Shown here one piece after another: positions 1 to 26,616 of a DNA stretch of 64,000 nucleotides. The notes beneath the pieces were generated by a model that worked only from the letters and a program-made list of their open reading frames with translations, had not been told where the DNA came from and did no database searches. The DNA comes from a virus: positions 1 to 64,000 of the IMG/VR virus record IMGVR_UViG_3300021138_000007, one strand, 5' to 3'. Every line of letters starts with the position of its first letter. Within the stretch, counting starts at the first letter, position 1. The position numbers and the translations under genes are program-made.

Positions 1-822
1 GTTAATTTTAATGATTTAAATTCTTTTTACCAGAATTTATCGTTTGAGCAATTAAAGAATCATATTGATTCTCTTCCAGGTATGGATTATTATAAAACTT
101 TGAAAAAGTGCTCATATGTGGAGAATGATCGTTTGTTTTTCTACAATGTGAAATATTGTATCGTTTTTAATAAAATGGCATCGGAAATCGGATTGGGCAA
201 TCCTGATTTATTTTGGGATTATTGGTATAAACTAAATTCATCAGCTATGCAATCTCATTTAAAATTAGTATTTCCTAATAAATATTATACTTCAATTGCT
301 TTAGATTTAAAAAGAGAAAAACCTTATTTGACTGATGATCAAGTAATTAAAACGATACTTGAAGGTGCTGAATTAAGGGCAAAAAGGGCATATTGTGCCA
401 TGTTAAGGGAATTGTATGTCACAATGTATTTAACACGTAGTTTAATTGATTCTGAAGGACATAAATATGATCCATTGAAAGTATTAATACATCCAATTTT
501 AGATTCTTTGTGTCGAATTGATGCTTTAATAGTTAGCCCTAAAATGGGACTTGTAGGATTAGCAATACATTTAAATTCTAAACAAAGCAATGAAGCTGTA
601 GGAGTTAAAAGTGGATTAATTCCGATTGAATTTAGAAATATGGTGAATCACATATTGGGATTTGGTATAGACATTAATTATTCTGAATTATCAGAAGGAA
701 GAATTATCCTTCCTTCTGATAAAAAACTTCTAATGCTTAGAAAAGCATTAGAAGGAGAAGAACAATCATATAATATGCTAGTAGATGCATATACTTGGAA
801 AAATGAGCAATTATCCCAATGA
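1..822 (+). CDS. Putative PD-(D/E)XK endonuclease, TaqI-family-like; 5'-truncated by window edge
   Basis: Frame 1 is open from base 1 to the ATG at 82. RAKRAYCAMLRELY...VLIHPILDSLCRIDALIV...GLAIHLNS resembles the R-x-Y-R...LD-x3-IDxLI pattern I recall for TaqI-like nucleases. Confidence 0.4.
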   Translation, partial: VNFNDLNSFYQNLSFEQLKNHIDSLPGMDYYKTLKKCSYVENDRLFFYNVKYCIVFNKMASEIGLGNPDLFWDYWYKLNSSAMQSHLKLVFPNKYYTSIALDLKREKPYLTDDQVIKTILEGAELRAKRAYCAMLRELYVTMYLTRSLIDSEGHKYDPLKVLIHPILDSLCRIDALIVSPKMGLVGLAIHLNSKQSNEAVGVKSGLIPIEFRNMVNHILGFGIDINYSELSEGRIILPSDKKLLMLRKALEGEEQSYNMLVDAYTWKNEQLSQ

Positions 823-1236
823 ATCATCTTTTGGATATATATAATCAATAAGATCAGGAATTTGTACATCGCTTAAATCTATGTTAGAAGCAAAGCCAGG
901 ATTATTTCTTGGATCGTCAATATTGATCCCGCTTAATGGTTCGCCTTCGATTTCTTGTATAGTATTGTACATATTTAATAATTCTTGTGTGGACATGTCA
1001 TTGTTAATGTTAGCACCTTGCCCTTTAAGATAATCAATTAATTGTGCTCTATACTTTTCTTCTCGTTTGACATCATGGTGTTCGCGCATTTGATCATCAA
1101 AACTATCGCCTAAATCATCTATATTAGATATTCTTGTCATAATAGAATCAACAGTATCTGCTTCCATTTTATAACCATTTTGATCTAAATCGTCCGCTAT
1201 TGAAGCTAATTTTTGCATAATATAATTTTTATTCAT
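811..1236 (-). CDS. Hypothetical protein with N-terminal shared tag (probable internal head protein)
   Basis: N-terminus KLASIADDLDQNGYKMEADTVDSIMTRIS; RBS AAGGA; own AGG-N17-AGAA promoter. Confidence 0.6.
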   Translation of the reverse strand: MNKNYIMQKLASIADDLDQNGYKMEADTVDSIMTRISNIDDLGDSFDDQMREHHDVKREEKYRAQLIDYLKGQGANINNDMSTQELLNMYNTIQEIEGEPLSGINIDDPRNNPGFASNIDLSDVQIPDLIDYIYPKDDSLG

Positions 1237-1263
1237 GATTGATATCCTTATATATTATTTCTT

Positions 1264-1301
1264 TTCTTCAGCATAAAGGATATTCCCTTTATAAATAAGA
1301 A
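1264..1301. promoter_or_regulatory. Overlapping divergent pair of phage promoters (AGG-N17-AGAA)
   Basis: + strand: AGGA(1277-1280)-17 nt-AGAA(1298-1301). - strand: AGGG(1288-1285)-17 nt-AGAA(1267-1264). Lies between divergent genes. Confidence 0.75.
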
Positions 1302-1334
1302 TATTATAAAGTATTAGGTGTTAGGTGAGCTTAA

Positions 1335-2687
1335 ATGAACGATCAAATTATAAAAGATTTAATAAATATTGCAAATTCATTAGATGACAAATATATGTTT
1401 GATGAATCAGACGTAATCACCAAAATTGCAAAACAAATTTCAATTCATAATACGAAATATGCTGCGAATCCTCTTGGTAAATTTCAAAAAGATTTTATGC
1501 AAAAAACATTGAAAAATACAATCAATAACGAAATGCTTAATGCAAATCAACGTGATAATCAATTTTTATTAAAAACTTTAGGAGGAGCAGCGGCGGCTAC
1601 TGGTATTGGAGCTTTGGGCCTCTCGCAAATACCAAATAATCCACCTGCTATTTCTAATACTGCTACTACTGGTGTGCCAACTGCGGAATTACCTGCAAAT
1701 ACTAATCTTTTTTCATCATTAACTCCAAAACCACAAACTGCGCCTTTACCAAATAATGCGGCTGACATCACTTTGGAATTAATGATGCTTTTAGCCACAA
1801 TGCAAGAAGATAATAAAGTATTATTTAGCCCATATAAAGAAGACATTAATAAATTAATTAATAATGTTACTTTTGTTTTAAGAGAATATCAACAACTATC
1901 TAAAACAGCCAATTCTAAATTTTCTAGAATTATATTGAGTCAAAATTTTGGAGATGAAGTTGAAGAACCCAATGTAGAAGATAAAGCTTTTGGAGAGGGT
2001 GTGCCTAAAGAAAATTATTCATCAGAAGTTCAAAGTGTTTTGAACCAATTGGAACTTTATGTAAATTCAAATGAAGAACAAAAAATTAATGCTTTGATGA
2101 ATATAGATAATAATATTTATAAACATGGGCCTCAATTTATTCAACAATTAATTCAAAGTGACAATAACCATGTATTAGATAAATATGCGCAGGCAGTAAA
2201 TACCGTACTGAATGCACAACCTAGAAGCATAAAAGAAAACTACGCGCTCTCTACTTTAAAACAAATAATACAAGAATTTAGTCCGAATCTTAAAAGTTTA
2301 TTACATGGTAAAACTCTGTCTACAGATCAATTGCTGTCAGGGCAATATTTAAATGCACCCTATGAAGATAAAGCATTTAGTGATGATGGAATAAACTATA
2401 AAGAAACTGCGCAAAATAAAACAGAGTCTCAACAATTGACAAATATTTATACTGCTATGGCAAATAAATTCAAATATTATTACGATGATTTAAATAATAT
2501 CTTTAAAACATTACCTAATAATAATAATTTAAAACAACATTTTCAACTTATATTGATAAATATTAAATCTGGAGAAGAGTATTTTGAGAGAATTGTAAAA
2601 GAAAAACAATTCCCACAACTTGTAAATCCTGAAAAAATATCATCAAATGCCACAGTTGGAACAAGTCCAGGCAGTCAAATAAAATAA
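1335..2687 (+). CDS. Hypothetical Asn/Gln-rich protein with N-terminal shared tag and a Gly/Ala-rich hydrophobic segment
   Basis: N-terminus DLINIANSLDDKYMFDESDVITKIAKQIS; segment LGGAAAATGIGALGLS; RBS AGGTGA. Confidence 0.6.
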   Translation: MNDQIIKDLINIANSLDDKYMFDESDVITKIAKQISIHNTKYAANPLGKFQKDFMQKTLKNTINNEMLNANQRDNQFLLKTLGGAAAATGIGALGLSQIPNNPPAISNTATTGVPTAELPANTNLFSSLTPKPQTAPLPNNAADITLELMMLLATMQEDNKVLFSPYKEDINKLINNVTFVLREYQQLSKTANSKFSRIILSQNFGDEVEEPNVEDKAFGEGVPKENYSSEVQSVLNQLELYVNSNEEQKINALMNIDNNIYKHGPQFIQQLIQSDNNHVLDKYAQAVNTVLNAQPRSIKENYALSTLKQIIQEFSPNLKSLLHGKTLSTDQLLSGQYLNAPYEDKAFSDDGINYKETAQNKTESQQLTNIYTAMANKFKYYYDDLNNIFKTLPNNNNLKQHFQLILINIKSGEEYFERIVKEKQFPQLVNPEKISSNATVGTSPGSQIK

Positions 2688-3463: not shown

Positions 3464-3967
3464 TTATTTCTCAATATCTACTGGAACATTATATGGAAAT
3501 TGATTGTCTGGTAACTCAATTATTGGGATTCTTTTTCCTTCAGTATATCCTACTTCTGGATGATACAATGATTCATCTGTGTCAAATGGATCAAAAGAAT
3601 TACCATCAGTTAATTCTTCATCAGTTTTTAATTCATTCTCAAGATGATGCTTATCCTTGTCAAGAATGCTTTGTAAAAACTTGACTTCCTCTCTTTGCCA
3701 ATCTGATAAAGGTGTGCCTTTACTGTAAATCTCTACCATGCGTCTACGAGCCTCTGCTGGAGTTGTAGTTTCAACAGGAGGATTAGGGTTTTTGGCATTC
3801 ATATCTTTTACTAATTGTAGAGCTTGCATCCAAGCTTGATCGTCTTCTGCACCAGCTAAACGAATTAAAGTGTAAGTAATTCCATCAGCTTGATTGAAAT
3901 TATTATTCAAATCAGCTTTGTAAGCGACCTTAATTAAACGATTAACAACACTAGATAACTTTTCCAT
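3464..3967 (-). CDS. Hypothetical protein with N-terminal shared tag
   Basis: RLIKVAYKADLNNNFNQADGITYTLIRLAG; RBS AAGGA; own promoter at 4005-4029. Confidence 0.6.
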   Translation of the reverse strand: MEKLSSVVNRLIKVAYKADLNNNFNQADGITYTLIRLAGAEDDQAWMQALQLVKDMNAKNPNPPVETTTPAEARRRMVEIYSKGTPLSDWQREEVKFLQSILDKDKHHLENELKTDEELTDGNSFDPFDTDESLYHPEVGYTEGKRIPIIELPDNQFPYNVPVDIEK

Positions 3968-4004: not shown

Positions 4005-4029
4005 TTCTGCGATTAAAAATCAAACACCT
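4005..4029 (-). promoter_or_regulatory. Phage promoter AGGT-N17-AGAA
   Basis: TAAAGGT gtttgatttttaatcgc AGAA on the minus strand. Confidence 0.7.
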
Positions 4030-4039
4030 TTAAATAATT

Positions 4040-5110
4040 TTAAATTGGACCAATTCCTTCAATTGTGTCATCATCTATTTGAGACTCTAATTGCTTAATT
4101 TGAAGAATAGATTCATTGTCTGTTTTAAAGTATTTCTCAAAATAACCTTCTAACTTGTTACAAAATGCTTTCAAATCTTGTATTTCTTGTTCGAGCTTTT
4201 GATAATCGTTATTTTTTGGAATACTTGATATATTGATCCGCACGATTGAAAAATCATTTAAAATAGACAGACCAATGTCAGTTTCGATTAAATAATTTGC
4301 TCCATATTTGTTCTTTTTTTGTATCGGCTTGTTATTGTAAGTTAATATAGAATCTTCATTAATATTTTTTTCATCGAGTTTATCATTTGAGTTCAAATCC
4401 TGATTGTCAAAAACTTCGATATCATCTTTAATGAGATATACTCCAATATTTTCGGGCTTTGCAATAATGTAAACACACTTCGTAGGGCACATTGAAGATA
4501 CATATATCTTTATATTCTTGAAATAAGCCCAAATAGGAGGATCATCTTCTTTCGCATTTTCTGCACTATATCCCGTTTCGGTAAAATCAGATTTGTCTTC
4601 CCAAGCATCAAAGTCTTTATATCGCATTGGATGCATTACTATGCCATCAGCTTTTAATTCATGAGCCTCAAGTAAAGCTTTGCCTAACATGATTGTTTCT
4701 CTTGATAAAGTGTCCGCATTGATGGTCTGGTCTAATGAAGCAGTAGTGCCAAATAATTTAAACACTTCTAAATCTATTTGCCTATGCATAGCATTAATAG
4801 CGCGATCTATAATTCGTTTACATACTTCTTCTCGATTGGGAAAATACAAAAGATAATGATTAAATTCCTCTTCAGTAATAACAGGATTAGTCGCAATTTT
4901 AAAATTAGGTACGTAAATTTGTTCATGCGATAGTGATACTTTGGGATATGCTCCATTTTGAGGAATCACATATGCTTTAGAAGAAAAATCCCTTCCATAA
5001 ACTGGTGGTTGATTTATTCTTTTTTCTTCGTTAGTCCAAGAATCTACAGACAAAATATGACGAACAACAGGGTTGTATTTTTCCCCGTTTAAAAAATATC
5101 TTTTATTCAT
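4040..5110 (-). CDS. Divergent paralogue of the major capsid protein (HK97 fold)
   Basis: Colinear similarity to 7021..7875: IYVPNFKIATNP/LLVPTIELASNP; RQIDLEVFKL/RQEDVEVFKV; LEAHELKADGIVMHPMRYKDF/IEEHELVGAKIVLHPQRYKDI; ILNDFSIVRI/VINDYALSRI. Confidence 0.85.
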   Translation of the reverse strand: MNKRYFLNGEKYNPVVRHILSVDSWTNEEKRINQPPVYGRDFSSKAYVIPQNGAYPKVSLSHEQIYVPNFKIATNPVITEEEFNHYLLYFPNREEVCKRIIDRAINAMHRQIDLEVFKLFGTTASLDQTINADTLSRETIMLGKALLEAHELKADGIVMHPMRYKDFDAWEDKSDFTETGYSAENAKEDDPPIWAYFKNIKIYVSSMCPTKCVYIIAKPENIGVYLIKDDIEVFDNQDLNSNDKLDEKNINEDSILTYNNKPIQKKNKYGANYLIETDIGLSILNDFSIVRINISSIPKNNDYQKLEQEIQDLKAFCNKLEGYFEKYFKTDNESILQIKQLESQIDDDTIEGIGPI

Positions 5111-5234: not shown

Positions 5235-5480
5235 TTATACAATATGAATATCAGTAGACATTCTCTTTAAAACATTTGTAATTGCATCAGCTTTAACAAA
5301 ATCACCTGCATTATCAGCCTTTTGTGCTTCTTCAATCAATTTATCTACTTCATCGGTTACAGATTTTTTAGTTTTAGGTCTACAACTACCGTTTTCACCA
5401 GGCTTAGTTCCTGGCACTCTTTCATATCCTTCCCAACACTTCATTTTTTCTGCACTCTTATCCATCATAATATCCTTCAA
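5235..5480 (-). CDS. Small protein: CWxGY...C motif plus C-terminal shared tag (likely start ATG 5468)
   Basis: KCWEGYERVPGTKPGENGSCRPK followed by KLIEEAQKADNAGDFVKADAITNVLKRMS; RBS GAAGGA before ATG 5468. Confidence 0.65.
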   Translation of the reverse strand: MKDIMMDKSAEKMKCWEGYERVPGTKPGENGSCRPKTKKSVTDEVDKLIEEAQKADNAGDFVKADAITNVLKRMSTDIHIV

Positions 5481-5498
5481 AATTAGAATAATATTTAT

Positions 5499-5523
5499 TT
5501 CTTATGTTTACAAAGTTATACCT
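5499..5523 (-). promoter_or_regulatory. Phage promoter AGGT-N17-AGAA
   Basis: TGCAGGT ataactttgtaaacata AGAA. Confidence 0.7.
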
Positions 5524-5553: not shown

Positions 5554-6684
5554 TTAACGCCACCAAATATTTTCTTCTTTTAATGTGCGGTTGCCAATAA
5601 TGTCAGCATATTTGCTATCCTTGATATCAAACATTGCACAAATTTCTTTTTCTCTTTTCCCATCTTTATAAGCTTGGCGAATTTGTTGAGCTAATTCTTT
5701 TGCTTTAATGTCTTTTTCTGATTTTTTCTTTTCAATCGGCTTTGATCTTTCAGTGGTAATAGCTTCACTAAATGTTTTGCCTTCGCGCAAACGTCGATCT
5801 ATTGTATTTTTAGGAACTCCTGTCCATTCCGACCACTGAGTTAATGTTCCTGTTCTACCTTCATAAGTGAAAATAAGCGTATCGCCTTTTTTGCGTTTGA
5901 GATGATAATTTTCATCATGCCATGATCTATTTTGAACAACATCGTGTATTAAATATTCTGACAAATTCATTTCTTTAGAAATAGATGATACAGTCATACC
6001 AGATTGATGCTTATCTCTAATTTCTTTCGCTATTTTGGCGTTGATAGTGCTATTATTTGGTACTTTTTCTTCATTGCCTATACAATCACGAAATCCTTTA
6101 TAAATATTATATTTTCTAGATAATCTAGTGCTAGGAGTGCTATCTTTGTAAATCCAATCCAAAAATGTTCTGACATTATATTTACCATGCATATATAATG
6201 TTTTGGCTATGCCAAAATCTTCTATATGCCCTTTTTCACCTTTTGTTTGATTTACATATATTTCCTGTAATTTAGTGATAAAATTTAACGTACCAACAAT
6301 TGTGGTTTTAATATCCCAAAAGGGTCTTATATCGTTTTTATCATATGAAATACATCCATCACCATCAAAATAGCCTCTAATAAAATGAGTTATATATTCA
6401 TCAGGTATTTTATCGGGCCATTCTAAACTGTAAGTTTTATGCTGTCCTAAACCTAAAGCTTGCAAATCTTTCACCATTTCAGATGATTTGATAGTTAAAA
6501 CAGCTTGTGTTTCGCCATTGTCTTTAGGTTGACTATAAATCTTTCCATCATATTCTACAAAATTGCGTATTCTTTCAATTAATTCAATATCTGATTCTTT
6601 AAGATTAATCATAATCAAATTAGGATTATTTTCTGTATTTGTAACGTGTCCATCTGCGGCTAATAATCCTAAAACATAAGCCAT
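5554..6684 (-). mobile_element. Free-standing LAGLIDADG homing endonuclease with C-terminal HTH-like DNA-binding modules (frame open upstream to 6897)
   Basis: YVLGLLAADG and HFIRGYFDGDG motifs; C-terminal TLTQWSEWTGVPKNTIDRRL. Confidence 0.9.
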
Positions 6685-7020: not shown

Positions 7021-7875
7021 TTAGCCAACAAGTATGCGTGACAGAGCATAGTCATTTATCACAGCAAATCCCAACTCTTCAAACACAACCCATCCAAGGC
7101 GAAGTCGCTTAGGATCGTCGGCAGGAAGAACAGTGATATCCTGTCGAACAGGCATAGCACCTACGAACTGTGCAGGAGCAAGTACGTAGACAGCGTTCTT
7201 AGGAACCATTGTGCTGACGTGAATGTCAGCGGAGTAGACGTGACCATAAAGACCAGTCTGAAGAACGTCTCGCTGAGTTGCCTGGTCGAAGACTTCAGGA
7301 CCCCAGGTTCGAATGTCCTTATATCGCTGTGGATGAAGAACAATCTTAGCACCAACAAGTTCGTGCTCTTCGATGAGGGTCAACGCGAGGTTGATGTTCT
7401 CAATCTGAAGTGTACCAACTACGCTGATGGAGTGGTCAGTTGGGATAGCAGCGTTGATGACCTTGAATACTTCAACGTCTTCTTGTCGCTGTAGACTATC
7501 CTTAGCGCGGACCTGTGCTCGGTCAACGATGTAGAAACGTCGCTGTCGAATTTCGTTCAAACGGATTGTTGGGTTAGAAGCTAACTCAATGGTTGGAACG
7601 AGAAGCTCTTCTGCTTCAACTTCGGCAGTAGGAACGCTACCTCTCTTAGGAATAACGTAGGACTTAACAGCGATATCTCGCTCGTATCGTGCCAACGCAC
7701 CCTGAGGTAATTCATCTACCATTAATAACTTGCGTCCGATAGCCTGGTAAAGTAAGCTAGTCTTGATTGGCTCTACCATTGCTTGTGCAAGAGCGGTTCG
7801 ACCCTCTGGAGTCTCAAGAGCCATTGCAATAATAGCTTCTTTCTGCTCTGCTACATTTCGTTTAATCATGCTCAT
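7021..7875 (-). CDS. Major capsid protein (HK97 fold, no obvious long propeptide)
   Basis: GRTALAQAMVEPI...GRKLLMVDELPQGALARYERD...VPTIELASNPTI pattern of large-phage HK97 capsids; strong RBS AAGGAG; follows protease, scaffold and decoration genes. Confidence 0.88.
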   Translation of the reverse strand: MSMIKRNVAEQKEAIIAMALETPEGRTALAQAMVEPIKTSLLYQAIGRKLLMVDELPQGALARYERDIAVKSYVIPKRGSVPTAEVEAEELLVPTIELASNPTIRLNEIRQRRFYIVDRAQVRAKDSLQRQEDVEVFKVINAAIPTDHSISVVGTLQIENINLALTLIEEHELVGAKIVLHPQRYKDIRTWGPEVFDQATQRDVLQTGLYGHVYSADIHVSTMVPKNAVYVLAPAQFVGAMPVRQDITVLPADDPKRLRLGWVVFEELGFAVINDYALSRILVG

Positions 7876-7917: not shown

Positions 7918-8595
7918 TTACATAAGCTGAGTGATGTAAAGTAGAGAACCGTCAAAGCTATCAACTCTAGCAATTGCAGGACCATGAGAGGAACTTGCAA
8001 GTGCTACAAACTTACCTGCATTAGCGAACGCACCGAAGGTGAGTAAGTCGCCTGGTAAGAATGTGTATGGTGAACCGCTGTCGGTTCCAGCAGTTGCTGT
8101 CTGTACAGCAACGAATTGATCAGTAATGAATTGACCAGATGGGGTGGTGTAGACACCAACGCCTCGTCGTGGACCTTCGCTACCACCTGCGCCAGCAGTA
8201 AGGTTAGTTACTTCTGAAACAAGCTCGTCCTGGAACTCGCCGATAGCTCGCTTAGGACCAACAAACCAACCGTTGTTAGCTGCAACAAGGTTGCCGCTGC
8301 TTGGATCAACATAAGTAGAACCAACTGGGTCGTTTTGAATGAAAGTATTTCCTGTGGTCATATGATCGTCAGCAGCGATACCTAAGTAGCTGTTAACGTT
8401 GTCGGTCTGTGCATTAGAGTTAGTGCCACCAGTACCATTAACGCCTCGGTTAGCAGGTCGTGCAAAATTGGCATAAGTGCCAGATAAGTCACGAGCCAAC
8501 ACCATACCAGCGTGGAATGTATTTGTTCCACTTGCGATAGTATTAGAAGAATCGCGGTTGGAAACTACAACAGTCTGAAGTGCTTTAATTGCCAT
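7918..8595 (-). CDS. Probable capsid decoration/cement protein
   Basis: Gly/Thr/Ala-rich beta-type protein immediately upstream of the MCP; RBS GGAGG; assignment by synteny. Confidence 0.55.
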   Translation of the reverse strand: MAIKALQTVVVSNRDSSNTIASGTNTFHAGMVLARDLSGTYANFARPANRGVNGTGGTNSNAQTDNVNSYLGIAADDHMTTGNTFIQNDPVGSTYVDPSSGNLVAANNGWFVGPKRAIGEFQDELVSEVTNLTAGAGGSEGPRRGVGVYTTPSGQFITDQFVAVQTATAGTDSGSPYTFLPGDLLTFGAFANAGKFVALASSSHGPAIARVDSFDGSLLYITQLM

Positions 8596-8655: not shown

Positions 8656-10497
8656 TTACTCCTCGATGCGAGGCATCGTGAACATACCACGTAATGCCGA
8701 TTGTAGATCATTCTGCGCATACTGATTGTCATTAACACCAGTGAATGCAGAAATGCCAATGTTGCTTGCAGTTCGCTTATTCATCTTTTCTGCGGCAGCA
8801 GCAGCTACTCTTTGAGCACTGCTCTGTGCGGCTCGAAGCATTAAATGTCCTTGCTGCAACATTGCGTTGTTTGTAAGCCCTTCGCTCAACCAAAGCTCAA
8901 CGTTTTGGTCTACTTCATCGGCAGAAATAATGCCTGCTAGGGCGAGTTTAGTGGAAACTGCATATGCAGTCTTTACACGAGACATTGCAAGATCGAAATC
9001 TTTAGAAGCTTTAGCTTCTTTATCTTTCATTGGCTTAACTTCTGTTAAATCATTATTCTTGTATTTTACAACTTCATCTTCTTTTTCAGAAGCTTCATTA
9101 ACAGTAATGTTAGTACCAGACTGAGCAACTGTTACATTAGCTGCACAAGATGGGCAATAACCCTCTTCTTCACAAGTTTCGCAGATAACTACTCTATTGC
9201 CGCAATCGCTGCAATGAATTAAGTTAGTAGCTACTCTTTCAGGGTTGTTACAGCCCTGGCATTCTACTGTCTTAGCAACAGTTGTTTTTCGAGCTTTAGG
9301 ACCCATTTGTGTAGGAATAGCTTGGTCGCTACCGCGATCAGGATCAGCAGAAGGCACTTGATTGATAGCACCAAAATCCGCTGTATATTGAAGAGTACCG
9401 TCTGGACTACCTTCTAATTTAATTACATTATAAGAATCTTTCAACTGAAGATTTTCAGGATTCATAGTAGGAATACTCTGCTTTTCAAATGTAGGATTAT
9501 CAGCCTTCAAGCTATTGCCTGCGCTATCTTCAAGAGTTAAAACAGGATATTCATCTTCGCCCTTATATTGAGCTTCGCCGTTAAATTGGAATGGTTTAGC
9601 CTTTTCACCGCCATAAGTACCAGAAGAAGTATCTTTACCGAGGCCAATATCCTTTGGCTTAGTACCTTCAGCTTGTGCAAGGCGTAAAATTGCTTCGCGC
9701 TCTGCTTTGCGCTGTGCGAGTGCCTTCTTTGTCATTTTATTCACCTTCGTAGATGCTGTGTGCGGCATGAATGTATCTTCACCTTCCGCGTCGTCTGAGT
9801 CTTCTTCTGACTCTGTGTCTTCGCCTTCTTCATCAGATTCGTCATCGTCTTCAGTATCATCTTCATTAGATTCTTCATTAGATTCTTCATCTTCAGGAGT
9901 GAAAACTTCTTCGGAGTCTTCATCTTCTTCATCAGAAAAAGGTTCGTCGCCGCCTAACAACTCTGTGAGTGCTTTTTCAATTGCTTGCTGTGCTTCTTCA
10001 AGTTTATCAGCGGGAAGTTCGATTTTAATAGTAGCTGTATCGAGGTCGTGATCGCTTACTTCGCCTAATCCTTCATGTTCTTCATCGGTAATATCTGTCG
10101 GTAAATCTAAATCGTTATCTTCTTGATCTCCCATAGCTGTTTCGCCAGGAAGTTTCAAATCGTCATTGGGTTCAACATTTGCGGAGTCATCATCTTTAGG
10201 CTCCATCGGAAGCCCCATCATCTGGGCGACAACTGTGTTGTCCAAACCATAAGAAGAAGCGATATTAGGAAGATATTTTGCGCGAACAGCAGCAGCAACA
10301 ATACGTGCTTCATCTTCGTTTAAAGATGCATGCTTTTTCATATCGTTTACGCAATTTTCCATATCTTCACTATCCGTTTCTTTTAAGGCAGCAAGGCGTA
10401 GAGCCTTGATTTGCTTCTCTTGGAGGGCATTGTCTTTAGTTTTATTCATAGTAGATGCTTCCCCTCTCATGATTTCTAAATTCTTTAAAAACCACAC
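8656..10497 (-). CDS. Probable scaffold/internal head protein with acidic tract and Cys-rich zinc-binding segment (likely start ATG 10449)
   Basis: Between protease and MCP; very D/E-rich middle; four CxxC pairs; helical C-terminus; RBS GAGGGG before MNKTK. Confidence 0.6.
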   Translation of the reverse strand: MWFLKNLEIMRGEASTMNKTKDNALQEKQIKALRLAALKETDSEDMENCVNDMKKHASLNEDEARIVAAAVRAKYLPNIASSYGLDNTVVAQMMGLPMEPKDDDSANVEPNDDLKLPGETAMGDQEDNDLDLPTDITDEEHEGLGEVSDHDLDTATIKIELPADKLEEAQQAIEKALTELLGGDEPFSDEEDEDSEEVFTPEDEESNEESNEDDTEDDDESDEEGEDTESEEDSDDAEGEDTFMPHTASTKVNKMTKKALAQRKAEREAILRLAQAEGTKPKDIGLGKDTSSGTYGGEKAKPFQFNGEAQYKGEDEYPVLTLEDSAGNSLKADNPTFEKQSIPTMNPENLQLKDSYNVIKLEGSPDGTLQYTADFGAINQVPSADPDRGSDQAIPTQMGPKARKTTVAKTVECQGCNNPERVATNLIHCSDCGNRVVICETCEEEGYCPSCAANVTVAQSGTNITVNEASEKEDEVVKYKNNDLTEVKPMKDKEAKASKDFDLAMSRVKTAYAVSTKLALAGIISADEVDQNVELWLSEGLTNNAMLQQGHLMLRAAQSSAQRVAAAAAEKMNKRTASNIGISAFTGVNDNQYAQNDLQSALRGMFTMPRIEE

Positions 10498-18200: not shown

Positions 18201-18744
18201 AACAATGTCTGCAATCAATAGAAGCATGTACAAAACAATCGCCTCGAAGATGATATTCTTGAGAAATTAATGGCAATATAGAACGTATACGTAATTTCTT
18301 ATTTAATTTATCAAAATAATCTTTTACATAAGAAGTTGCGCATTCCAGTTCAAATCCGCTTACAGGAAAATGTGAATAAAAATTAATTCCTGCGGCAATC
18401 TTAGGCTCATTATTAAACCAGTATTCTGCCCACCAATAGACGCCATTTCGGTCATTTGGCACCTGCATTGCTTGATTAGTCAAAGCAGGAGAATAGAAAT
18501 TAGGTCCAGTTGTGACATTTCCCATAGCAGATGTTAATCCGCCATAGCCAGATTGAGCAAAACGCAAACTACTTGCATTGGCTGTAAATGGTTTTTTATT
18601 ATCAAAATATGCTGTTTTTGAAGCTGCATATTTAGGTAAATAATCAGAAGATGCGCCAGAAATCATCTCTCCTGTAACTTGTTGTCCTGCTGTTCTTAAC
18701 ACTGATAACAGTGTTGGTGCTTCTCTAGTTGCCAAAATGTACAC
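15220..18744 (-). CDS. Portal protein with intein and C-terminal DUF559/Vsr-like nuclease domain
   Basis: Portal-like EPKIAAGINFYS, EYHLRGDCF, WHFKR..PWQPYGMSMIRP, GPSYSNAQVGL; C-terminal LEQKL..QY..YQLDGAI..KIGIEADSKTFH..DKARD..GWHILRF. Confidence 0.8.
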   Translation of the reverse strand: MYILATREAPTLLSVLRTAGQQVTGEMISGASSDYLPKYAASKTAYFDNKKPFTANASSLRFAQSGYGGLTSAMGNVTTGPNFYSPALTNQAMQVPNDRNGVYWWAEYWFNNEPKIAAGINFYSHFPVSGFELECATSYVKDYFDKLNKKLRIRSILPLISQEYHLRGDCFVHASIDCRHCFGTNEDQETGERCEHPGATWSSIYIFPPDSIEKIKGIMGMPDTFLYMPTEAEFKVVETQSPKEQYDAIPDKLKKLILQRKPIKLENECMWHFKRAGAPWQPYGMSMIRPLFMTLAYKDKLRSAQWLVAERHIIPIKIVKIGSENQRANEQDIQNVQDELAAVANDPLLTLVTHHAFEFDYIGACYSSDTEVLTKEGFKLFKDVKDDELIATYDVKTGLIQWDVPLERHVHEYDSRKFGPLINFTGKHYDTLVTPNHEMLVQKRIWSSNTNHYENTEWQKIRADQITDHDKFLSTVSWSGILPEEMPYAKACPMLADVDIDDFLAFVGYYLSEGSLRKKTECSCGYSTVSIYQKANTESQKRIHNILRNCFGEKTKFSDISWNNYEPVTHYNVHSTCLAEYMLNEFGHLSNHKHVPRWILDLPSDKLNILINALMDGDGDERPSGKGLKYRYTTTSIELANAVQEIAVKLGFNAKITFDAEDNRKQDNHLPIHRVYWAEKTESRVVRSRNIKHVDYNDFVYCFTVNSGLLITRRNGKISIHGNSGKVLQLTNEYELIDQELIDGMMLNKAIINGDGPSYSNAQVGLLTMAERLKSWQNELSEWLEECLYRQCAKWNDFVIEGERGQEDYIYPTVKWNDLQLRDDTGKLQMLVTGNQNGVFSNRRVIEAFGYDYDEEVEYLRYEQSANMIASPSISGIDASSGFSGGAGYGGMMGGMMGMSPSGGLPGMPTMPGAEGGGAVPAPAPPMGPLASVNPEENYRLAAAIVNQVYDERITPQKESINVRIASKQIKSQAHLEFLESQVPTTGRGIFGRMPDKLDHMVEIISSTPLLGGENCVPQNWPAMFEYQTVINEFSRNQPEEYHRYAAKKKEEKAAPRMFTSLEQKLYDIILSMNIPWAFYAQYQAGPGMKYQLDGAIPSLKIGIEADSKTFHASPEKIAQDKARDSELFAQGWHILRFTEQEIIDHPREIANVILRTIQLLLGNSNNSGKSITL
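16576..17652 (-). mobile_element. Intein (359 aa) with LAGLIDADG endonuclease in the portal
   Basis: YIGA|CYSSDTEVLT ... VTPNH ... VYCFTV ... ISIHGN|SGK; endonuclease motifs FVGYYLSEG and LINALMDGDG. Confidence 0.9.
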
Positions 18745-18776
18745 TTCCTAAAATTATTTGTTTTTATTTATACAAA

Positions 18777-19475
18777 TTAACGATCTGGTTGGTAAGAAGC
18801 TACATCTCCTTGTTGCCACATTGGGTGCCAAGCGTCATTGCCTTGAGCATAACCTAAACCCCATTGTGGCCCTCTATAAACCATAGTTCCATTTCCCAGT
18901 TCAGCAGAGGATTTAGATTGAGGAATATAATTAGGGTCTTGAGTTTTTTTTAAAGCTTTTTGCAAAGCTTCTTCTAATGTTTCTTCTTCGCCTTCGTCGT
19001 CAACTTCTTGCGCTGTAATTCGATTTTTTCTTACGCTAGATTGTGCATGATTCACATTTTCTTGTCGTACAGCCTCTAATTGCTCTTGCAATGGTGTTTC
19101 TTCTGGATTAGGATGATAAGGAGATTTACGTCTTGCTTCCGTGCTTAAAGTTGCTGGTCCTTCATTGTTAGGTGCCATGCCGTCTGGTTTATTGTCTGTG
19201 ACAACATTGCCATCCGAACCTATACTTTCATTACGATAAATTTCCTTATCATACTTTTCTTTTTCAGGATTAGTCTGATCTTTAGCTTCTTGCTTATATG
19301 CTTCAGTATCGCCATCTTGATCAACAGCAATATTATTTTGCTGTTGTTGAGGCGTTTGTTTGCGTTTACCTAAAAACGCTCCTCCACCAAATTGTGCGAA
19401 ACGATACCACATATTTCCACCTTTAATTAACGTGTTGTTTTGAAAGCCATAATTCCATTGCTTCGTCAAGTTCAT
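18777..19475 (-). CDS. Hypothetical low-complexity head-associated protein (likely start MWYRFAQ, ATG 19412)
   Basis: RBS AAGGTGG before MWYRFAQ; ExxL motifs; lies directly upstream of the portal. Confidence 0.55.
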   Translation of the reverse strand: MNLTKQWNYGFQNNTLIKGGNMWYRFAQFGGGAFLGKRKQTPQQQQNNIAVDQDGDTEAYKQEAKDQTNPEKEKYDKEIYRNESIGSDGNVVTDNKPDGMAPNNEGPATLSTEARRKSPYHPNPEETPLQEQLEAVRQENVNHAQSSVRKNRITAQEVDDEGEEETLEEALQKALKKTQDPNYIPQSKSSAELGNGTMVYRGPQWGLGYAQGNDAWHPMWQQGDVASYQPDR

Positions 19476-21069
19476 CTTCTGATAAACCTACATGTTCATC
19501 AGCTAATAAAGTTTCTATAGTTTTATCACTATAGCCTGTTTGCTTGCCTTTCATTTGTTGTTCAATATTTTCTTCTTTATCTGGGTCTAAACGAACAACT
19601 TTTGTGCTTGCAGTTTTATTTAAAAGCTCTGGATAAGATTCTTCTGTTGCCAATGCTTTTAAATCATTAACTTGATGAGTTAAACTTTCAACTTCCACTT
19701 TTTTACTACCACTATTTAATAGTTCAGGATAACTGTCTTTTGATTCACCGCGATGACCGCCTTCAACACTAGGAGTATCATTTAACAATTGTTCTTTAGT
19801 TTTCATATCTTCATTATTCTTTTGAACTGCTGTCAATTTTTCCTCTTGCGTTTTGAATGGTTCAGACAAGTTATTTTTTAATCTATTTTCCAAAGGCTGT
19901 GTGATTTCTTGTGCTAATCGATAAGATCGTGCATTCCAACCTTTAGAAGCATTAATTTTATTAATAGGACTACCTTCCCCACGATGACCGCCTTCAACAG
20001 CAGATGCATCATCTAATTTAGTTTCCAGATTATCATCATTATCATGATTATTTTTAAACTTTTTACGTGCTTCATCCATTCGGGTGTCTAAACTGCCTTT
20101 TTCATCAAGTTTATTTTCTTCACGATTTCTTTCACCTTCTTTTAATGATAAAAGATTTTTATCATTATCTGGGTGTCTGGCAACGTCTAATCTACCAAGT
20201 GCTTGATGATTTAATTCTGCAACTTTCAACCAGCTTTGATAAGCACATGAAATTTTTCCATCTTGTGTAACTCTGGAATCAATACAGTGATCTCGGCATT
20301 TTGACACTTCCATAGCAATTGCTTTACCTGTTTGATAAACAGCTTTGGGACACATTAAAAATGGTTCATTGGCTTGTGTGTCAATATAAGTATATGCAGT
20401 TCGTATGTTTCGTTCTGGCATGTAATTCGCCATAATATTTCTTAATCTAAATGATGCAGCATCTAAGGCCATATCATCGCCTTCTATGATAGCTTCATAC
20501 GCAGATACTAAAGAATTTCTTTCCTGTATAGAAGATGCATCTTTCATTAAAAATTTAACAATAACAGCAGCTTCATATTGATTTTGTCCTTTGCTATTAT
20601 TTGTTGAAGCTGTTCTTTCTAATTTAACAACTTCATTATTAATATTTCTATAATTTTGAATATTATTAAATGCTGTTCTCAATGCTGAAACTCTATGAGA
20701 AATGCGAATATTTGTCAAATTATCAATGATATTAGAAATTCTCTCAATAGATTCTGGTCCATGAATTTTTATGATTCGAACAATACCTTTTAATCCATCA
20801 TTTTTATCAGTAAATTCCTGAATAGTAGGATCATCTTGATCTAAATCTTCATCGTTCAATGCAGATAAAGGAGAATCAGGAAGAACTTGTTTAAAGCCTG
20901 AGTCTTCTAATTTTTCAAGCATGGGCATTAAACTCTTTAAGAATTCAATAAGTCCATTACCACCAATCAAGCCTTCAGATTCTTCATTTTGATGATCTGG
21001 CTTTTTAGTTTCTTTATCTTTAGAAGTTTCTTCCTTCTCAGTTTTCTTATTCTTTAATTCTTCACTCAT
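19423..21069 (-). CDS. Hypothetical probable internal head protein with repeated ExxL and GGHRGE motifs
   Basis: VEGGHRGE twice, SYPELLN twice, Cys cluster CPK..CRDHC..C. Confidence 0.6.
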   Translation of the reverse strand: MSEELKNKKTEKEETSKDKETKKPDHQNEESEGLIGGNGLIEFLKSLMPMLEKLEDSGFKQVLPDSPLSALNDEDLDQDDPTIQEFTDKNDGLKGIVRIIKIHGPESIERISNIIDNLTNIRISHRVSALRTAFNNIQNYRNINNEVVKLERTASTNNSKGQNQYEAAVIVKFLMKDASSIQERNSLVSAYEAIIEGDDMALDAASFRLRNIMANYMPERNIRTAYTYIDTQANEPFLMCPKAVYQTGKAIAMEVSKCRDHCIDSRVTQDGKISCAYQSWLKVAELNHQALGRLDVARHPDNDKNLLSLKEGERNREENKLDEKGSLDTRMDEARKKFKNNHDNDDNLETKLDDASAVEGGHRGEGSPINKINASKGWNARSYRLAQEITQPLENRLKNNLSEPFKTQEEKLTAVQKNNEDMKTKEQLLNDTPSVEGGHRGESKDSYPELLNSGSKKVEVESLTHQVNDLKALATEESYPELLNKTASTKVVRLDPDKEENIEQQMKGKQTGYSDKTIETLLADEHVGLSEDELDEAMELWLSKQHVN

Positions 21070-21082
21070 TATATTCCCCTAA

Positions 21083-22084
21083 TTATTGAATTTCCTCATC
21101 TTTAAATCCACGCGCTTTAAGAGCAGATCGAATTTCTTTTAATTCACTACTGACTCCCTTTTTATCAGCGGCATTTTCCATTTCACTCAAGCTTTTTAAC
21201 CAACCAAATCGAGCCATTAATTCAGCAGTAGACCTTTTAGTTAAATCAGGTTTGATTGTATAAATTGTTTCCTCTTTAGCAGCAACCCTTTGATTTCTAA
21301 CTGTTTGTGCTGTTTTATGAAGCTTTAAATAATCATCAAAATTAAATTGATCAATTTTTGACCAATCTACATTTGGGTCTAAATTATCGCGGTCATAACT
21401 TGAATCTGATAAAACCACTTTATTATTACTAGATGCTTTAGTTTCTGGTTTTTCTTCTGGTTCATTCTTATTTTTTCGTCGCTTTTTACGGTTATAATCC
21501 CTTACCACATCAACACATCTATCAATGGTTTCTTTGTTAAACATGCCTTCCTTTTCAAGATATCGCACAATATCTCTTTTTTCAAGACCGTGGTCGAGCA
21601 ATTTACCCACTTTACCCATCAAAACACGAAAAGGATTACCACGAGTTTTCTTCTTCTTCTTGCTTACAACTTCACGATGATTGTAGCCTTTTAAAGAAGC
21701 CTCTTTAGAAATTTGTTCATTAGACTTTTGCATATCTTTCACTTTCTCTTCTAATTTTCTTGCAAGTTCAGGAGCAGTAGGATCAAGTGTTCCTTCTCTT
21801 GGATCAACCGTTCTTTGACCAGAATTATATTTCATTGCATTTAAGATTGTAGAAACACTTTTCTTCATTTCATCTCTAGTCAATTGATTAAATATTTCTT
21901 GTAATTCAGTTTCATAAGCTTTTGACTGAGTGGGCGTACTATTTGCTATTTTATGTAATAATGGCAAAAGTCGCTCTGGTGTAACAGAGTTATCTTCACG
22001 ACCTCCAGCTAATGGAATATTATTTATTCCATTAGCTGGATTTGAGGCTAATCCTCCCACTTGGTTTTGTGCTAATTTATTCAT
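21083..22084 (-). CDS. Hypothetical basic protein of the head module
   Basis: 333-aa ORF with KKKKKTRGNPFRVLMG segment and several [KR]xA[SQ] sites. Confidence 0.6.
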   Translation of the reverse strand: MNKLAQNQVGGLASNPANGINNIPLAGGREDNSVTPERLLPLLHKIANSTPTQSKAYETELQEIFNQLTRDEMKKSVSTILNAMKYNSGQRTVDPREGTLDPTAPELARKLEEKVKDMQKSNEQISKEASLKGYNHREVVSKKKKKTRGNPFRVLMGKVGKLLDHGLEKRDIVRYLEKEGMFNKETIDRCVDVVRDYNRKKRRKNKNEPEEKPETKASSNNKVVLSDSSYDRDNLDPNVDWSKIDQFNFDDYLKLHKTAQTVRNQRVAAKEETIYTIKPDLTKRSTAELMARFGWLKSLSEMENAADKKGVSSELKEIRSALKARGFKDEEIQ

Positions 22085-22090
22085 TAATAA

Positions 22091-22939
22091 TTACTCAATA
22101 TCAATTTCATCTACACCAGAAAGATTAAAATTTGCGCTAGAATAAACGTCTCTTAATTCAGTTGGCCTGACACCATACTGTTCCCATTCTGTTCGTTTTT
22201 CTTCTAGTGTTTTACCATCTCGCTTAATTGCTAGTCTTTGTGTTCTTTTAGCCTCTGCTGACGCTATACGTCGTTCTTCTGCGGCATAAAGTGCCTCACT
22301 ATCCATAATGCCAAAAGCACCCGTTGCAACATTTTCTGTACCAGTTCTTAAAATGCTACAAGCTCTAACTCCATAATTTTGTTGCTGTTGAATTTCAGTC
22401 AAAGCTTCTCTTTCCCAATTATTGCGTCTATCAGATACAATTTCTCGTGTTGTTCGTTGATCAAATAATTTATTATCTTGATCAGCAGATGATTGTAAAA
22501 TAGATTCAATATCTTCAAATTGTGGATCAAAAATTGATGCGCCTCTCATCATAACAGTCATATAATCAGAATCTGAAAATGCCTTCAGGGTTCCTGATAA
22601 ATCTCGACCATTTTCGCCATCATCATAATCATATGAAGAACGTCGAATTGCTTTATGATTAAGAATTAATCCTTGATCATCAATACGATTATCTTGCTGA
22701 TAATATTGTGGCATACTGTTTCTCAAAGCATCTTCAAAATTATATGAATTAGCACGAGCACTAGCTTCTTTATTGAATGCATTTTCCTCTTGTGCAATTT
22801 TCACACGTCTTTGACTTTTGCTTTCTCTCAAATACGCATAAGGGTCATCCTCATTCTGAGAATTCCCTACAAATGTTTGCTCCATAATTCCAGGAAGCTT
22901 TTCTGTTTCTGCAACTCTTCTAAATTTACTATTGCTCAT
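22091..22939 (-). CDS. Hypothetical protein of the head module
   Basis: 282-aa ORF; SD separated from the ATG by a hairpin (see findings). Confidence 0.6.
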   Translation of the reverse strand: MSNSKFRRVAETEKLPGIMEQTFVGNSQNEDDPYAYLRESKSQRRVKIAQEENAFNKEASARANSYNFEDALRNSMPQYYQQDNRIDDQGLILNHKAIRRSSYDYDDGENGRDLSGTLKAFSDSDYMTVMMRGASIFDPQFEDIESILQSSADQDNKLFDQRTTREIVSDRRNNWEREALTEIQQQQNYGVRACSILRTGTENVATGAFGIMDSEALYAAEERRIASAEAKRTQRLAIKRDGKTLEEKRTEWEQYGVRPTELRDVYSSANFNLSGVDEIDIE

Positions 22940-24402: not shown

Positions 24403-24783
24403 TTATTGTTTTATATTATGAACATGTAATTCATGATCAACATACTTAACAATATCGCCAATTCCTATGTCATTTTTGTCAAAAGCGCCTTTTTTCGCTT
24501 CAATAACATAACGAATATGTCCGTTTGGTTCGCATCTTTCTGTTGAATCTGCTTCCATATCTTTAATATCAACAATTATTCCTTGTTCATTTAAAAATGC
24601 AAGACTCAATGGAAATGATACATTTTTATTCCAGAAACAATGTCTGTCTGTATATGGGAATATAAACAGAACAGCTTCATCATCCTGTAAAGGATCAGCC
24701 CACATCAAACCTCTTTCTCTTTTAGAGTTAGTATCTGCTATAAACCTCACCTTAAATTTGTGCATATCTTTACTCCTGTTCAT
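24403..24783 (-). CDS. DUF192-family protein
   Basis: ADT...RERGLM...LFIF...FWNKNVSFPLSLAFL...G.IVDI...YVIE pattern. Confidence 0.85.
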   Translation of the reverse strand: MNRSKDMHKFKVRFIADTNSKRERGLMWADPLQDDEAVLFIFPYTDRHCFWNKNVSFPLSLAFLNEQGIIVDIKDMEADSTERCEPNGHIRYVIEAKKGAFDKNDIGIGDIVKYVDHELHVHNIKQ

Positions 24784-25567
24784 CCATTATATTTAACATT
24801 GTGATATTTTGATAAAGAGTATTAATTCTGTTATCAATAGCATCAGCCTCTTCATGTTGACCCAAATGATCATAAATTGCCGCTTGCTTTATCAAAGTAT
24901 CTATTTGTGTACGTATAGCTGAAGTAACGGACTTACTTTGGCCTTTTAAACCATAGTGTTCCCATTCTACAGGAGTAGGACGTGCGCCGAATAATTCATT
25001 GGAATTATTATTCCAATTTTTAATTTGCTTTACTTCTTGCTCAATCCAATTCAATTTAGCAGTTTCACTTGCATATCTTAACGGTTTGAGTTCATATTTG
25101 TTGTCAAAAGAATAAGTTACAAATGCTCTTTTAGTATTATCTCTATAAAGATCATCATAAATCTTTTTAGCAACTATTTTAACATCATTGCTATTTTTGA
25201 TTTCGTCATAAATCATAGCAGCTCTAACAGCGAAACTAATTTGCTGAAGCCAGTTATGAATTTTACGCATATCTTTATCTTCTAATTGTGAGTTACCAAT
25301 ATGGTGATTAAATCTTGAAGGTAATTCATTTAATGTAGGATAATTTCCTGTTTCTGAACCTTCTTCATATTCTGCCAAGACTTTAATCATAGCAGTTAGA
25401 TTTTTCTTTGGTTCACCATATTTAATATCATCTTTAGTAAACACAGGAGGAAGTTTTATCAATCCCACAGGTGTTTTTGATGCAAATCTCTTATCATTCT
25501 TTTGAGTGAGTGATAAAATTACATCTGCCAGATGCTCAGCTTTATTGAAAAGAGTTTGTTTATTCAT
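24770..25567 (-). CDS. Hypothetical protein with C-terminal shared tag
   Basis: TLIKQAAIYDHLGQHEEADAIDNRI near the C-terminus; KRFAS and LRYAS sites. Confidence 0.6.
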   Translation of the reverse strand: MNKQTLFNKAEHLADVILSLTQKNDKRFASKTPVGLIKLPPVFTKDDIKYGEPKKNLTAMIKVLAEYEEGSETGNYPTLNELPSRFNHHIGNSQLEDKDMRKIHNWLQQISFAVRAAMIYDEIKNSNDVKIVAKKIYDDLYRDNTKRAFVTYSFDNKYELKPLRYASETAKLNWIEQEVKQIKNWNNNSNELFGARPTPVEWEHYGLKGQSKSVTSAIRTQIDTLIKQAAIYDHLGQHEEADAIDNRINTLYQNITMLNIMDEQE

Positions 25568-26069
25568 TTTCTTCTGAAGAAATTCTTTTAAATTTATTGG
25601 TGGACGCTGTGCGAGTATTTTCTAACTCTTCATCAGAAAACGCAGAGCGATAATCAAACTTGTCTTTTGTTCGATTAGATTTTAAATGATTCTTTGATGT
25701 CAAATAAGCATCTCTTAGTGCTACTTTGGCCTTTTCTGTTAAAGCCACAGTTCGACCTCTACCTTCAATTAATCCCTCAGCTTTTAAACCCAAAAGTGCA
25801 GAATCAGTAATTGTGTTGGGAACTGTATATAAAGTCTCGCTACTTTTACGAGTTGCCAAAGATTGAGCAGTGGTCAAGAGTTCGTCTTTATTTTGATCTA
25901 TGGATCGCAACATCTCAATAGTTCTTTCGGAATACTTAGCAGCTTCGCGCTTATTTCCGCCTAAGAACGTTTGTTGTAATGCAGACAAACCTGTCATGTC
26001 ATCTCCAGCATAGTTGAAGATTTCATCATGGTTTTCTAATGTATGTACTGGTTTTATTGGAATTGGCAC
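25560..26069 (-). CDS. Hypothetical protein, possible winged-helix domain
   Basis: LLGLKAEGLIEGRGRTVALTEKAK resembles a winged-helix recognition helix plus wing; GTG start with GGAGG RBS. Confidence 0.5.
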   Translation of the reverse strand: MPIPIKPVHTLENHDEIFNYAGDDMTGLSALQQTFLGGNKREAAKYSERTIEMLRSIDQNKDELLTTAQSLATRKSSETLYTVPNTITDSALLGLKAEGLIEGRGRTVALTEKAKVALRDAYLTSKNHLKSNRTKDKFDYRSAFSDEELENTRTASTNKFKRISSEENE

Positions 26070-26106
26070 GTTAGTTAAGCCTCCTAGAACATTTTCTAAG
26101 ATATAC

Positions 26107-26131
26107 TTCTACAAAAAAGATGCAAATTCCT
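26107..26131 (-). promoter_or_regulatory. Phage promoter AGGA-N17-AGAA
   Basis: TAAAGGA atttgcatcttttttgt AGAA. Confidence 0.7.
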
Positions 26132-26166
26132 TTAAAAATAGTGATTTTTTGAAAAATATTTTGAAA

Positions 26167-26616
26167 TTAACGTCTTGGTATGATATTTTTCCATCTATCA
26201 GTTGCGCCATCGGGGTGAATGTTATCCCATTCAAATTGTTTCATGTCATTCATCATACTGGGACTTGAAATAGGATTGCCTTGATCAACATACGCTGGAC
26301 CTGAAATTTCTTGATCATTATTTTGCGCAAAAATACTTTCGTCAGTATCTTTATCGGAGTTAGTACCACCAGGAATGTCTATATATTGAGGCTTACGAAA
26401 ACGAGGTTGATTCCAAAAATCATTTTCTTTTTTATGTAATTCACTTTCATCAGCTTGATAAGGCCACATACGGGAATCAACGGGGATATTCCAGTCTTGT
26501 AAATTAAGAGTTTGAGCTTTTCTAATGATGATGTTAGTTAATACATCTGCTTCTTGATGCATTCCATTTTCATCAAGTGTGTTAGCCACATTAGCGATTT
26601 TAATCCAAATATCCAT
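26167..26616 (-). CDS. Hypothetical protein with N-terminal shared tag
   Basis: KIANVANTLDENGMHQEADVLTNIIIRKAQ; promoter variant AGGT-N16-AGAA at 26627-26650. Confidence 0.65.
   Translation of the reverse strand: MDIWIKIANVANTLDENGMHQEADVLTNIIIRKAQTLNLQDWNIPVDSRMWPYQADESELHKKENDFWNQPRFRKPQYIDIPGGTNSDKDTDESIFAQNNDQEISGPAYVDQGNPISSPSMMNDMKQFEWDNIHPDGATDRWKNIIPRR

Follow-up and report, generated by a model that had tools for sequence, protein, structure and literature searches.

The 112,111-bp freshwater giant-phage fragment IMGVR_UViG_3300021138_000007, the first 64 kb of which form the window analyzed here, encodes a set of otherwise dissimilar proteins that carry the same short sequence, hereafter called the tag, at one of their ends. 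The tag is an unannotated, virus-restricted, tetratricopeptide repeat (TPR)-like hairpin domain used as a portable terminal module, and it is characterized by a predicted fold, by modularity and a terminal position, by confinement to viruses, by a link to the head module, and by a promoter-like motif shared by its genes. We hypothesize that the tag serves as a label for docking on the prohead and that the head protease clips off its N-terminal copies, a reading in which we place slightly less than even confidence.

A preliminary description of this DNA had reported the motif at the N terminus of four open reading frames (ORFs) and at the C terminus of two, and the translations confirm it in all six. 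The N-terminally tagged products are a 141-aa acidic protein (811-1236, minus strand; tag at aa 6-37, nt ~1126-1221, followed by TRIS), a 450-aa Q/N-rich protein (1335-2687, plus strand; aa 5-36, nt 1347-1442), a 167-aa acidic protein (3464-3967, minus strand; aa 7-38, then IRLAG), and a 149-aa protein (26167-26616, minus strand; aa 3-36, then RKAQ). The C-terminally tagged ones are a protein of 76 to 81 aa (5235-5480, minus strand; aa 45-75, ending KRMS) and a conserved 265-aa protein (24770-25567, minus strand; aa 222-251). The 112-kb genome has 536 ORFs of 40 aa or more, and among them a strict regular expression matched those six only. When the six copies were built into a hidden Markov model (HMM) and the genome was scanned with it, as the preliminary description had proposed, a seventh, N-terminal copy emerged outside the window, in genome 71134-71523 (plus strand; E 2.4e-5). 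As the next best ORF scored E 0.4, the tag is far beyond chance. The tag is a real domain, and chance is excluded.

The conserved unit measures 32 to 36 aa rather than the ~28 aa first assigned to it. A profile made from the alignment of the seven copies in this genome was searched against 1.84 billion cluster representatives and retrieved 504 proteins at E ≤ 1e-3, 15 of them at E ≤ 1e-10; a second profile search, for homologous proteins, returned only the window's own. Realignment of 180 copies from the best 150 database matches yielded the 32-position consensus IIKKLIKIANKLDKKGLHKEADEIDNIIKKLA, in which D13 (100%), A21 (96%), A9 (95%), L5 (92%), L12 (91%), G16 (88%), D22 (84%), K/R30 (78%), and E20 (76%) are the most conserved, with further conservation at I24 and D/T25. 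The claim that the remainders of the tagged proteins (their bodies) lack mutual similarity also stands, with one weak exception: all-versus-all BLASTP matches are confined to the tag, apart from that between 26167-26616 and 811-1236 (30% over 108 aa, E 3e-6). When four relatives of this phage were included, the matches again fell mostly within the first ~35 residues, with few exceptions. Two metagenomic proteins, P0018 and P0019 (447 and 476 aa), have an N-terminal tag closely resembling that of 1335-2687.

AlphaFold2, supplied with a 64-row alignment, folds the tag of 26167-26616 into a helix at residues 3-16, a turn, and a helix at residues 20-36 (predicted local distance difference test [pLDDT], 91-98), and the remainder of the protein is predicted to be largely disordered. 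This model and the dissimilar bodies uphold the earlier view of a portable helical hairpin on unrelated proteins. Its failure to fit a named family holds as well, as neither Pfam nor PHROGs has a model over the tag in the six proteins and 144 database matches. A profile search of the PDB with the tag gave a designed repeat protein as its best match (E 0.26), and Foldseek returned no significant match for either AlphaFold2 model, its best superpositions being designed helix-loop-helix binders and single TPR units of KLC1, IpgC, and Tah1. A fold search of the ESM Atlas with 24770-25567 gave nothing usable, and the look-alikes of the tag in that atlas are viral hypothetical proteins. The second model, that of the 67-aa, two-tag protein P0025 predicted from its single sequence, shows four helices packed together (pLDDT 84; predicted template modeling score [pTM], 0.65).

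The TPR, which the preliminary description had named as a known repeat that the motif might turn out to be, agrees with the tag in the geometry of a single unit but not in sequence or in tandem arrangement. The KLC1, IpgC, and Tah1 units superpose on the tag at a root mean square deviation of 0.4 to 0.5 Å over 29 to 34 residues (Foldseek E > 3), and the small residues A9 and A21, 12 apart, match TPR positions 8 and 20. However, no Pfam TPR family is found for the six window proteins or among the 25 families touched by the 144 matches, the tag copies are single or split by long linkers, and the invariant Asp of the tag is not a TPR feature. EF-hands and dockerins share with the tag a helix-loop-helix, a D-x-x-G, and a later acidic residue, and the Dockerin_1 and EF-hand_5 models are each touched by 2 of the 144 matches (E ~1e-4 to 1e-3). 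Yet where EF-hands have Asp, at loop position 1, the seven copies vary (D, S, K, T, K, I, and H), and the tag family as a whole has no match to these models. A relation to the T7 scaffold gp9, which was scanned because one database match touched the Pfam family Phage_T7_Capsid, was rejected, the tag HMM scoring ~0 on gp9.

The terminal position and the modularity of the tag are evident from its architectures, which were counted over 142 database matches except where a pattern scan of IMG/VR is named. A copy starts within the first 12 residues of 111 of the 142 proteins, most often at residue 1 to 5. One copy is present in 81, two in 57, and three in 4, and where there are several, they are mostly split by long linkers; 6 proteins are little more than tags. 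For the pattern scan, a degenerate DNA pattern of the tag core was run over IMG/VR, its loci being picked blind to context; among the copies in the 138 tagged genes that it yielded, 100 are N terminal, 31 internal, and 19 C terminal. Tagged proteins are mostly small. Compared with the products of neighboring genes, their bodies have a more acidic and more polar, less hydrophobic composition (Mann-Whitney p 1e-12 to 1e-22), and the domains recognizable in them are few and varied (glucosaminidase/endolysin, peptidoglycan-binding, DnaJ, AP2, ferritin-like, and zinc-ribbon). In the relative G002 and in the IMG/VR loci L195 and L169, five to eight tagged genes with unrelated bodies stand in tandem. 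Four such hyperplastic arrays, each with unrelated bodies after the tag, lie at L195:3331-11892, L169:1900-5448, L170:2640-8584, and L087:7518-13650, and the array genes of L195 and L169 begin M(L/I)KELIK(I/L/V)AN..LD.

The tag is almost restricted to viruses. HMM-confirmed tags are present in 64 of 80 pattern matches on viral contigs, whereas only 4 of 120 pattern matches in 596 Gb of prokaryote genomes are true tags, and at least 2 of these 4 are on 3- to 4-kb contigs of metagenome-assembled genomes, which are probably misbinned phage DNA. Within the phage-G-like group, occurrence is patchy, and the tag is multicopy where present: there are 7 tags in this 112-kb fragment, 15, 18, 9, and 8, respectively, in its near-complete relatives G001 (378 kb), G002 (358 kb), G003 (479 kb), and G004 (441 kb), and none in five complete megaphages of 255 to 548 kb whose major capsid proteins (MCPs) are 57 to 59% identical. 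Phage G itself (497.5 kb), the only cultured relative, has no tag by genome search, nor by HMM in its 3- to 44-kb head region. This pattern of many copies or none suggests that the tag depends on a phage-encoded partner. In 80 IMG/VR loci of close relatives by MCP (88% identical, their other proteins ~45%), all six tagged proteins are missing from the 10 kb around the MCP gene, and tags are almost absent there. At E 0.01, tblastn matched P0025 to none of 50,697 phage records, locus L164 has no near relative among the same records, and a related-locus search with P0024 and P0022 found nothing.

The tag is linked to head-module genes, both in this phage and in other phage lineages. Annotation with PHROGs placed a head/packaging module on the minus strand, with the large terminase TerL (29778-32930; 1050 aa) at its far end, followed by the portal (15220-18744; 1174 aa), a prohead protease fusion (10648-15003; 1451 aa) whose protease domain (~aa 87-241) matches gp19 of phage G, a very acidic 613-aa protein (8656-10497), a 225-aa protein (7918-8595), and the MCP (7021-7875; 284 aa), which is 50% identical to gp27 of Bacillus phage G. 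The MCP carries no tag, nor do the two genes between it and the protease in the window. Of the seven tagged genes, six are situated within this module or next to it (1-27 kb), and none lies in the 38-kb replication/nucleotide-metabolism module at 33-71 kb (binomial p 0.001), which contains genes for a clamp, clamp loader, ribonucleotide reductase (RNR), RecJ, and UvsX as well as DNA polymerase, a DnaB-like helicase, and SbcCD-like proteins. Gene 5235-5480 sits between the MCP and HNH endonuclease genes and a paralog of MCP.

One N-tagged and one C-tagged gene (26167-26616 and 24770-25567 here) lie between TerL and the portal gene in this genome (G000), in G001, which is collinear with it, and in G003. 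The orthologs occupy the same place at 35 to 43% identity and by HMM carry their tags at the same end, although for 24770-25567 the G001 copy scores weakly; the ortholog of this gene in G004 has a marginal C-terminal tag match only (E 0.014). The 24770-25567 family is present in four of five tag-bearing genomes versus none of six tag-free ones (Fisher p 0.015). In another lineage, about seven of the loci picked blind from IMG/VR show one or two N-tagged genes, a few small genes, TerL (phrog_675), and the portal in succession, the tagged genes standing two to four genes upstream of the TerL-portal pair. Elsewhere, the gene for a 1229-aa protease in L170 is immediately preceded by seven tagged genes; in L178, the protease gene is immediately followed by two, one of which encodes a 173-aa protein tagged at both ends; and L048 and L054 have a C-terminal tag on a large protein just upstream of the protease.

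Tagged genes and head genes also have a promoter-like motif in common. The preliminary description had assigned five of the tagged genes their own copy of AGG-N16/17-AGAA; the sites were found, but their spacing was recounted as N17/18. AGG-N17/18-AGAA occurs within 100 nt upstream of 5 of the 7 tagged genes versus 6 of 135 others (Fisher p 2e-5). Two divergent, overlapping N18 sites at 1264-1301 face 811-1236 (minus strand) and 1335-2687 (plus strand). On the minus strand, N18 sites at 4005-4030 and 5499-5523 (computed coordinates) lie upstream of 3464-3967 and 5235-5480, and an N17 site at 26627-26651 lies upstream of 26167-26616. The six other genes with the motif include the head genes 8656-10497, 18777-19475, and 25560-26069; the last, which precedes and overlaps the tagged gene 24770-25567, has its promoter-like site at 26107-26132 (minus strand).

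The tag is often followed by a short motif that recurs in head proteins. The R-x-(A/S) first noted after four copies (RIS, RLA-G, RMS, and RKA-Q) is present as described, and the seventh copy ends in KYAQ. N-terminal tags in this clade end in [KR]-h-A-Q, and all three orthologs of 26167-26616, those of G001 and G003 among them, have [KR]-x-A-Q directly after helix 2. Across the genome, [KR][LIMFVY]AQ occurs 17 times versus 3.1 expected from shuffles (~5-fold), and 11 of the 17 sites fall in contiguous head genes at 8.6-23 kb (window 8656-22939). The protease fusion has three [KR]-h-A-Q sites (aa 304, 887, and 1197) at positions kept in orthologs: some 30 of these at ~45% identity, from loci in the L007-L086 range, have [KR]-h-A-[QS] at ~aa 304, 551, 775, and 1150, and more distant ones have five to nine K-V/I/F-A-S sites. 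The site at ~aa 304 directly follows the protease domain. The acidic protein 8656-10497 keeps one site (ILRLAQ here, ILKKIAS in relatives), the body of 24770-25567 has a conserved RYAS site, and the MCP has no [KR]-h-A-[QS] site.

Herpesvirus assemblin, whose fold is common to phage prohead proteases, cuts at (V/L/I)-x-A|S, and from this we infer that [KR]-h-A|Q/S is a maturation site. The [KR]-h-A-[QS] motif is probably the code, of the assemblin A|S type, at which the prohead protease cleaves. The protease fusion is the candidate processing enzyme and possibly a docking scaffold as well. It has a ~1200-aa extension with Q/N/P/G-rich linkers, three VKEKLLD-type repeats, and two zinc-ribbon-like CxxC pairs, while the protease of tag-free phage G has 301 aa. 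The acidic protein 8656-10497, which is specific to the tag-bearing subclade, is a candidate scaffold. As a separate observation, two proteins, 18777-19475 (from an internal Met) and that of genome 89305-89709, begin MWYRFAQ or MWYKFAQ, so that they share a second N-terminal peptide, a very short one, with this putative cleavage motif at its end.

If the tag is a prohead-docking label, its hairpin would bind a common internal partner, which may be the scaffold or core, the C-terminal part of the protease fusion, or the inner surface of the shell, and any protein carrying a tag would coassemble with the head. The protease would then cut N-terminal copies at [KR]-h-A-Q (A|Q/S), so that maturation would separate tag from body. 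The partner, the capsid localization, and the cleavage of the tag are inferred in this scheme. The tagged proteins may just as well belong to the scaffold or core as be cargo for delivery. In a stronger form, which we put forward only tentatively, the hairpin would be the address label of an unrecognized and widespread capsid cargo-loading system, in which every protein bearing it would dock on the protease-scaffold core of the prohead and be freed within the head by cleavage at [KR]-h-A|Q/S.

Several findings weigh against the docking hypothesis. The cargo part of it, which the preliminary description had favored, sits poorly with acidic, disorder-prone bodies that look more like scaffold or core than like enzyme cargo, and the almost tag-only proteins (P0025, P0034, and P0041) are not cargo. 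The two tags of P0025 pack on each other in its model, which fits tag-tag association. The [KR]-h-[AS] motif is frequent after internal copies too, so it is partly the structural end of the fold; C-terminal copies often stop before it, and only 22% of N-terminal copies have Q at the next position. Gene location is another difficulty: the head region of G001 holds only 4 of 14 tagged genes (p 0.04), and the main array of G002, with eight tagged genes, is ~100 kb from its MCP gene. A simple tag of late genes, as the preliminary description expected, also fits poorly with G001, where two tagged genes flank genes for an exonuclease V/Dda-like helicase and an AAA ATPase. No cryptic tag was found in the portal, protease, acidic protein, MCP, or neighboring genes, nor was there an obvious receptor signature in the MCP, portal, protease, or scaffold candidates. 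The MCP was considered as the receptor and set aside, as an alignment of MCPs from tag-bearing and tag-free phages revealed no distinguishing N-arm feature. Finally, because phage G lacks the tag, its particle proteome is uninformative here.

Some of these findings are what the main rival reading would predict, namely, that the tag is a generic oligomerization or docking hairpin without a capsid role, acting through tag pairing, as in a four-helix bundle, or through a nonstructural phage hub to gather the tagged accessory proteins into cytoplasmic complexes or condensates. We consider this rather unlikely, although helical hairpins commonly dimerize or dock, and AlphaFold2 makes a compact unit of the two hairpins of P0025. 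Two or three linker-split copies are present in 61 of the 142 proteins, some of them tag-only, and most tagged genes of G001 and G002 are outside the head module, some among DNA-metabolism genes. Multivalent tag proteins, however, would equally fit a scaffold or cross-linker inside proheads, and a generic hairpin leaves unexplained the adjacency to TerL, portal, and protease genes in several lineages, the promoter-like motif common to tagged and head genes, and the conserved [KR]-x-A-Q junction, which matches the sites in the protease fusion.

An improbable alternative is that the tag is a host-directed module that brings phage effectors to host RNA polymerase, a chaperone, or a membrane machine. 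Its restriction to viruses and its presence on fast-evolving small ORFans in hyperplastic arrays are typical of host-interaction genes, the bodies are acidic and disordered, and there is one match each with a DnaJ, an AP2, and a ferritin-like domain. The tag nevertheless hardly varies between phages whose hosts presumably differ, core genes of the head module between TerL and the portal have kept it, and its absence from close megaphage relatives together with its multiplicity where present points to a phage-encoded partner. Least of all do we credit the idea that the tag is recognized for the purpose of regulated proteolysis or chaperoning and not of localization (as a handle for an unfoldase or adaptor, for example), since, despite its terminal position, the disordered bodies, the adjacent protease-like motif, and the ability of phage G-type genomes to encode ClpP and ClpX (PMC12484599), a folded 32-residue hairpin is unlike the known short degrons, no Clp genes were found in the 112-kb fragment (where no search was aimed at them), and the head-module synteny is left unexplained.

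The remaining features of the fragment concern its setting. The G+C content is 30 to 42%, and CheckV estimates the record to be 31% complete, which fits a genome of ~360 kb. The tagged gene 5235-5480 probably starts at the ATG at 5465 and encodes 76 aa, and the database search returned a 76-aa form (P0009); its body is Cys-rich, with a CWEGYERVPG...GSC motif and a partial match to phrog_3477 (unknown function; E 2e-4). The HNH endonuclease gene beside it (5554-6684, minus strand) separates MCP from its downstream paralog (4040-5110, minus strand; ~25% identical), which may be a vertex protein; within 10 kb around MCP in relatives, the sole match to this paralog was the MCP gene itself. Some 30 IMG/VR relatives have an MCP that is 88 to 89% identical but a portal and protease fusion that are only ~45% identical, which marks the shell protein as unusually strongly constrained. 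The portal has a LAGLIDADG_3 match at aa 610-666 that resembles an insert of the intein type, and its C-terminal part (aa 1059-1158) is an endonuclease-like DUF559/MTES_1575 domain. TerL and the RNR large subunit (41747-45550; 1267 aa) are oversized, the latter with an endonuclease match at aa 477-594, and the extra length of both is probably due to inteins or inserted homing endonucleases. A UDP-galactopyranose mutase (glf)-like gene (26632-27750), 53 to 56% identical to annotated glf genes in Streptococcus phage records, lies inside the head module and adjoins the tagged gene 26167-26616.

To our knowledge, the way in which large phages select proteins for their heads is known in detail only for the short capsid-targeting sequence (CTS) of T4. 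A folded tag that is recognizable in sequence, with at least 504 protein clusters, makes head-protein selection testable in uncultivated giant phages. If the docking hypothesis is true, then packaged and ejected proteins, likely host-takeover and antidefense factors, would become predictable from sequence, the cutting code of an assemblin-type protease would be defined, and foreign proteins could be loaded into HK97-fold shells by means of a compact handle. If, further, a cargo-loading system exists, certain giant phages would package at least a dozen fast-evolving accessory proteins for delivery with their DNA, and for hundreds of uncultivated phages the packaged proteome could be read from sequence by the tag alone. 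Should the capsid reading be wrong, the tag would still be an unannotated, virus-restricted interaction domain and the first functional handle on a network of ORFans.

Known capsid systems offer parallels of different closeness. Encapsulins also use terminal address tags to load diverse cargo into an HK97-fold shell, but those tags are short, unstructured, and mostly C terminal, bind the shell directly, and remain uncleaved, and we see no sequence relation between them and the hairpin. The scaffolding protein gp8 of P22 is nearer in form, as its residues 271-300, a helix-turn-helix, are by themselves sufficient to anchor a carrier to the inner procapsid surface (PMC9965877). The tag agrees in size and shape with this element, a terminal helix-loop-helix of ~30 residues on a largely flexible protein; unlike it, the tag has acidic conserved charges (D13, E20, D22, and D/T25) where gp8 places basic residues (R293 and K296) on an acidic coat N-arm, and it is spread over 7 to 18 different proteins instead of one dedicated scaffolding protein. 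No sequence similarity was detected between the tag and gp8.

The remaining parallel is with T4, in which the CTS on the internal proteins IPI-III and Alt targets them to the prohead core and is removed by an assemblin-type prohead protease, which cuts immediately behind the signal (PMC9026906). The T4 signal is an N-terminal peptide of 10 to 19 residues that is cut at L/I-x-E, whereas the tag is a folded hairpin of ~32 residues that also occurs in C-terminal, internal, and multiple copies and ends in [KR]-h-A-Q/S; moreover, the bodies are basic in the T4 system and acidic in the tagged proteins. Both, however, are terminal signals shared by unrelated proteins that are encoded partly in variable tandem loci (PMC9026906), and the layout of signal, protease-like motif, and body is found with the tag too. 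The tagged tandem arrays, in turn, resemble the variable internal-protein loci of T4-like phages (PMC9026906).

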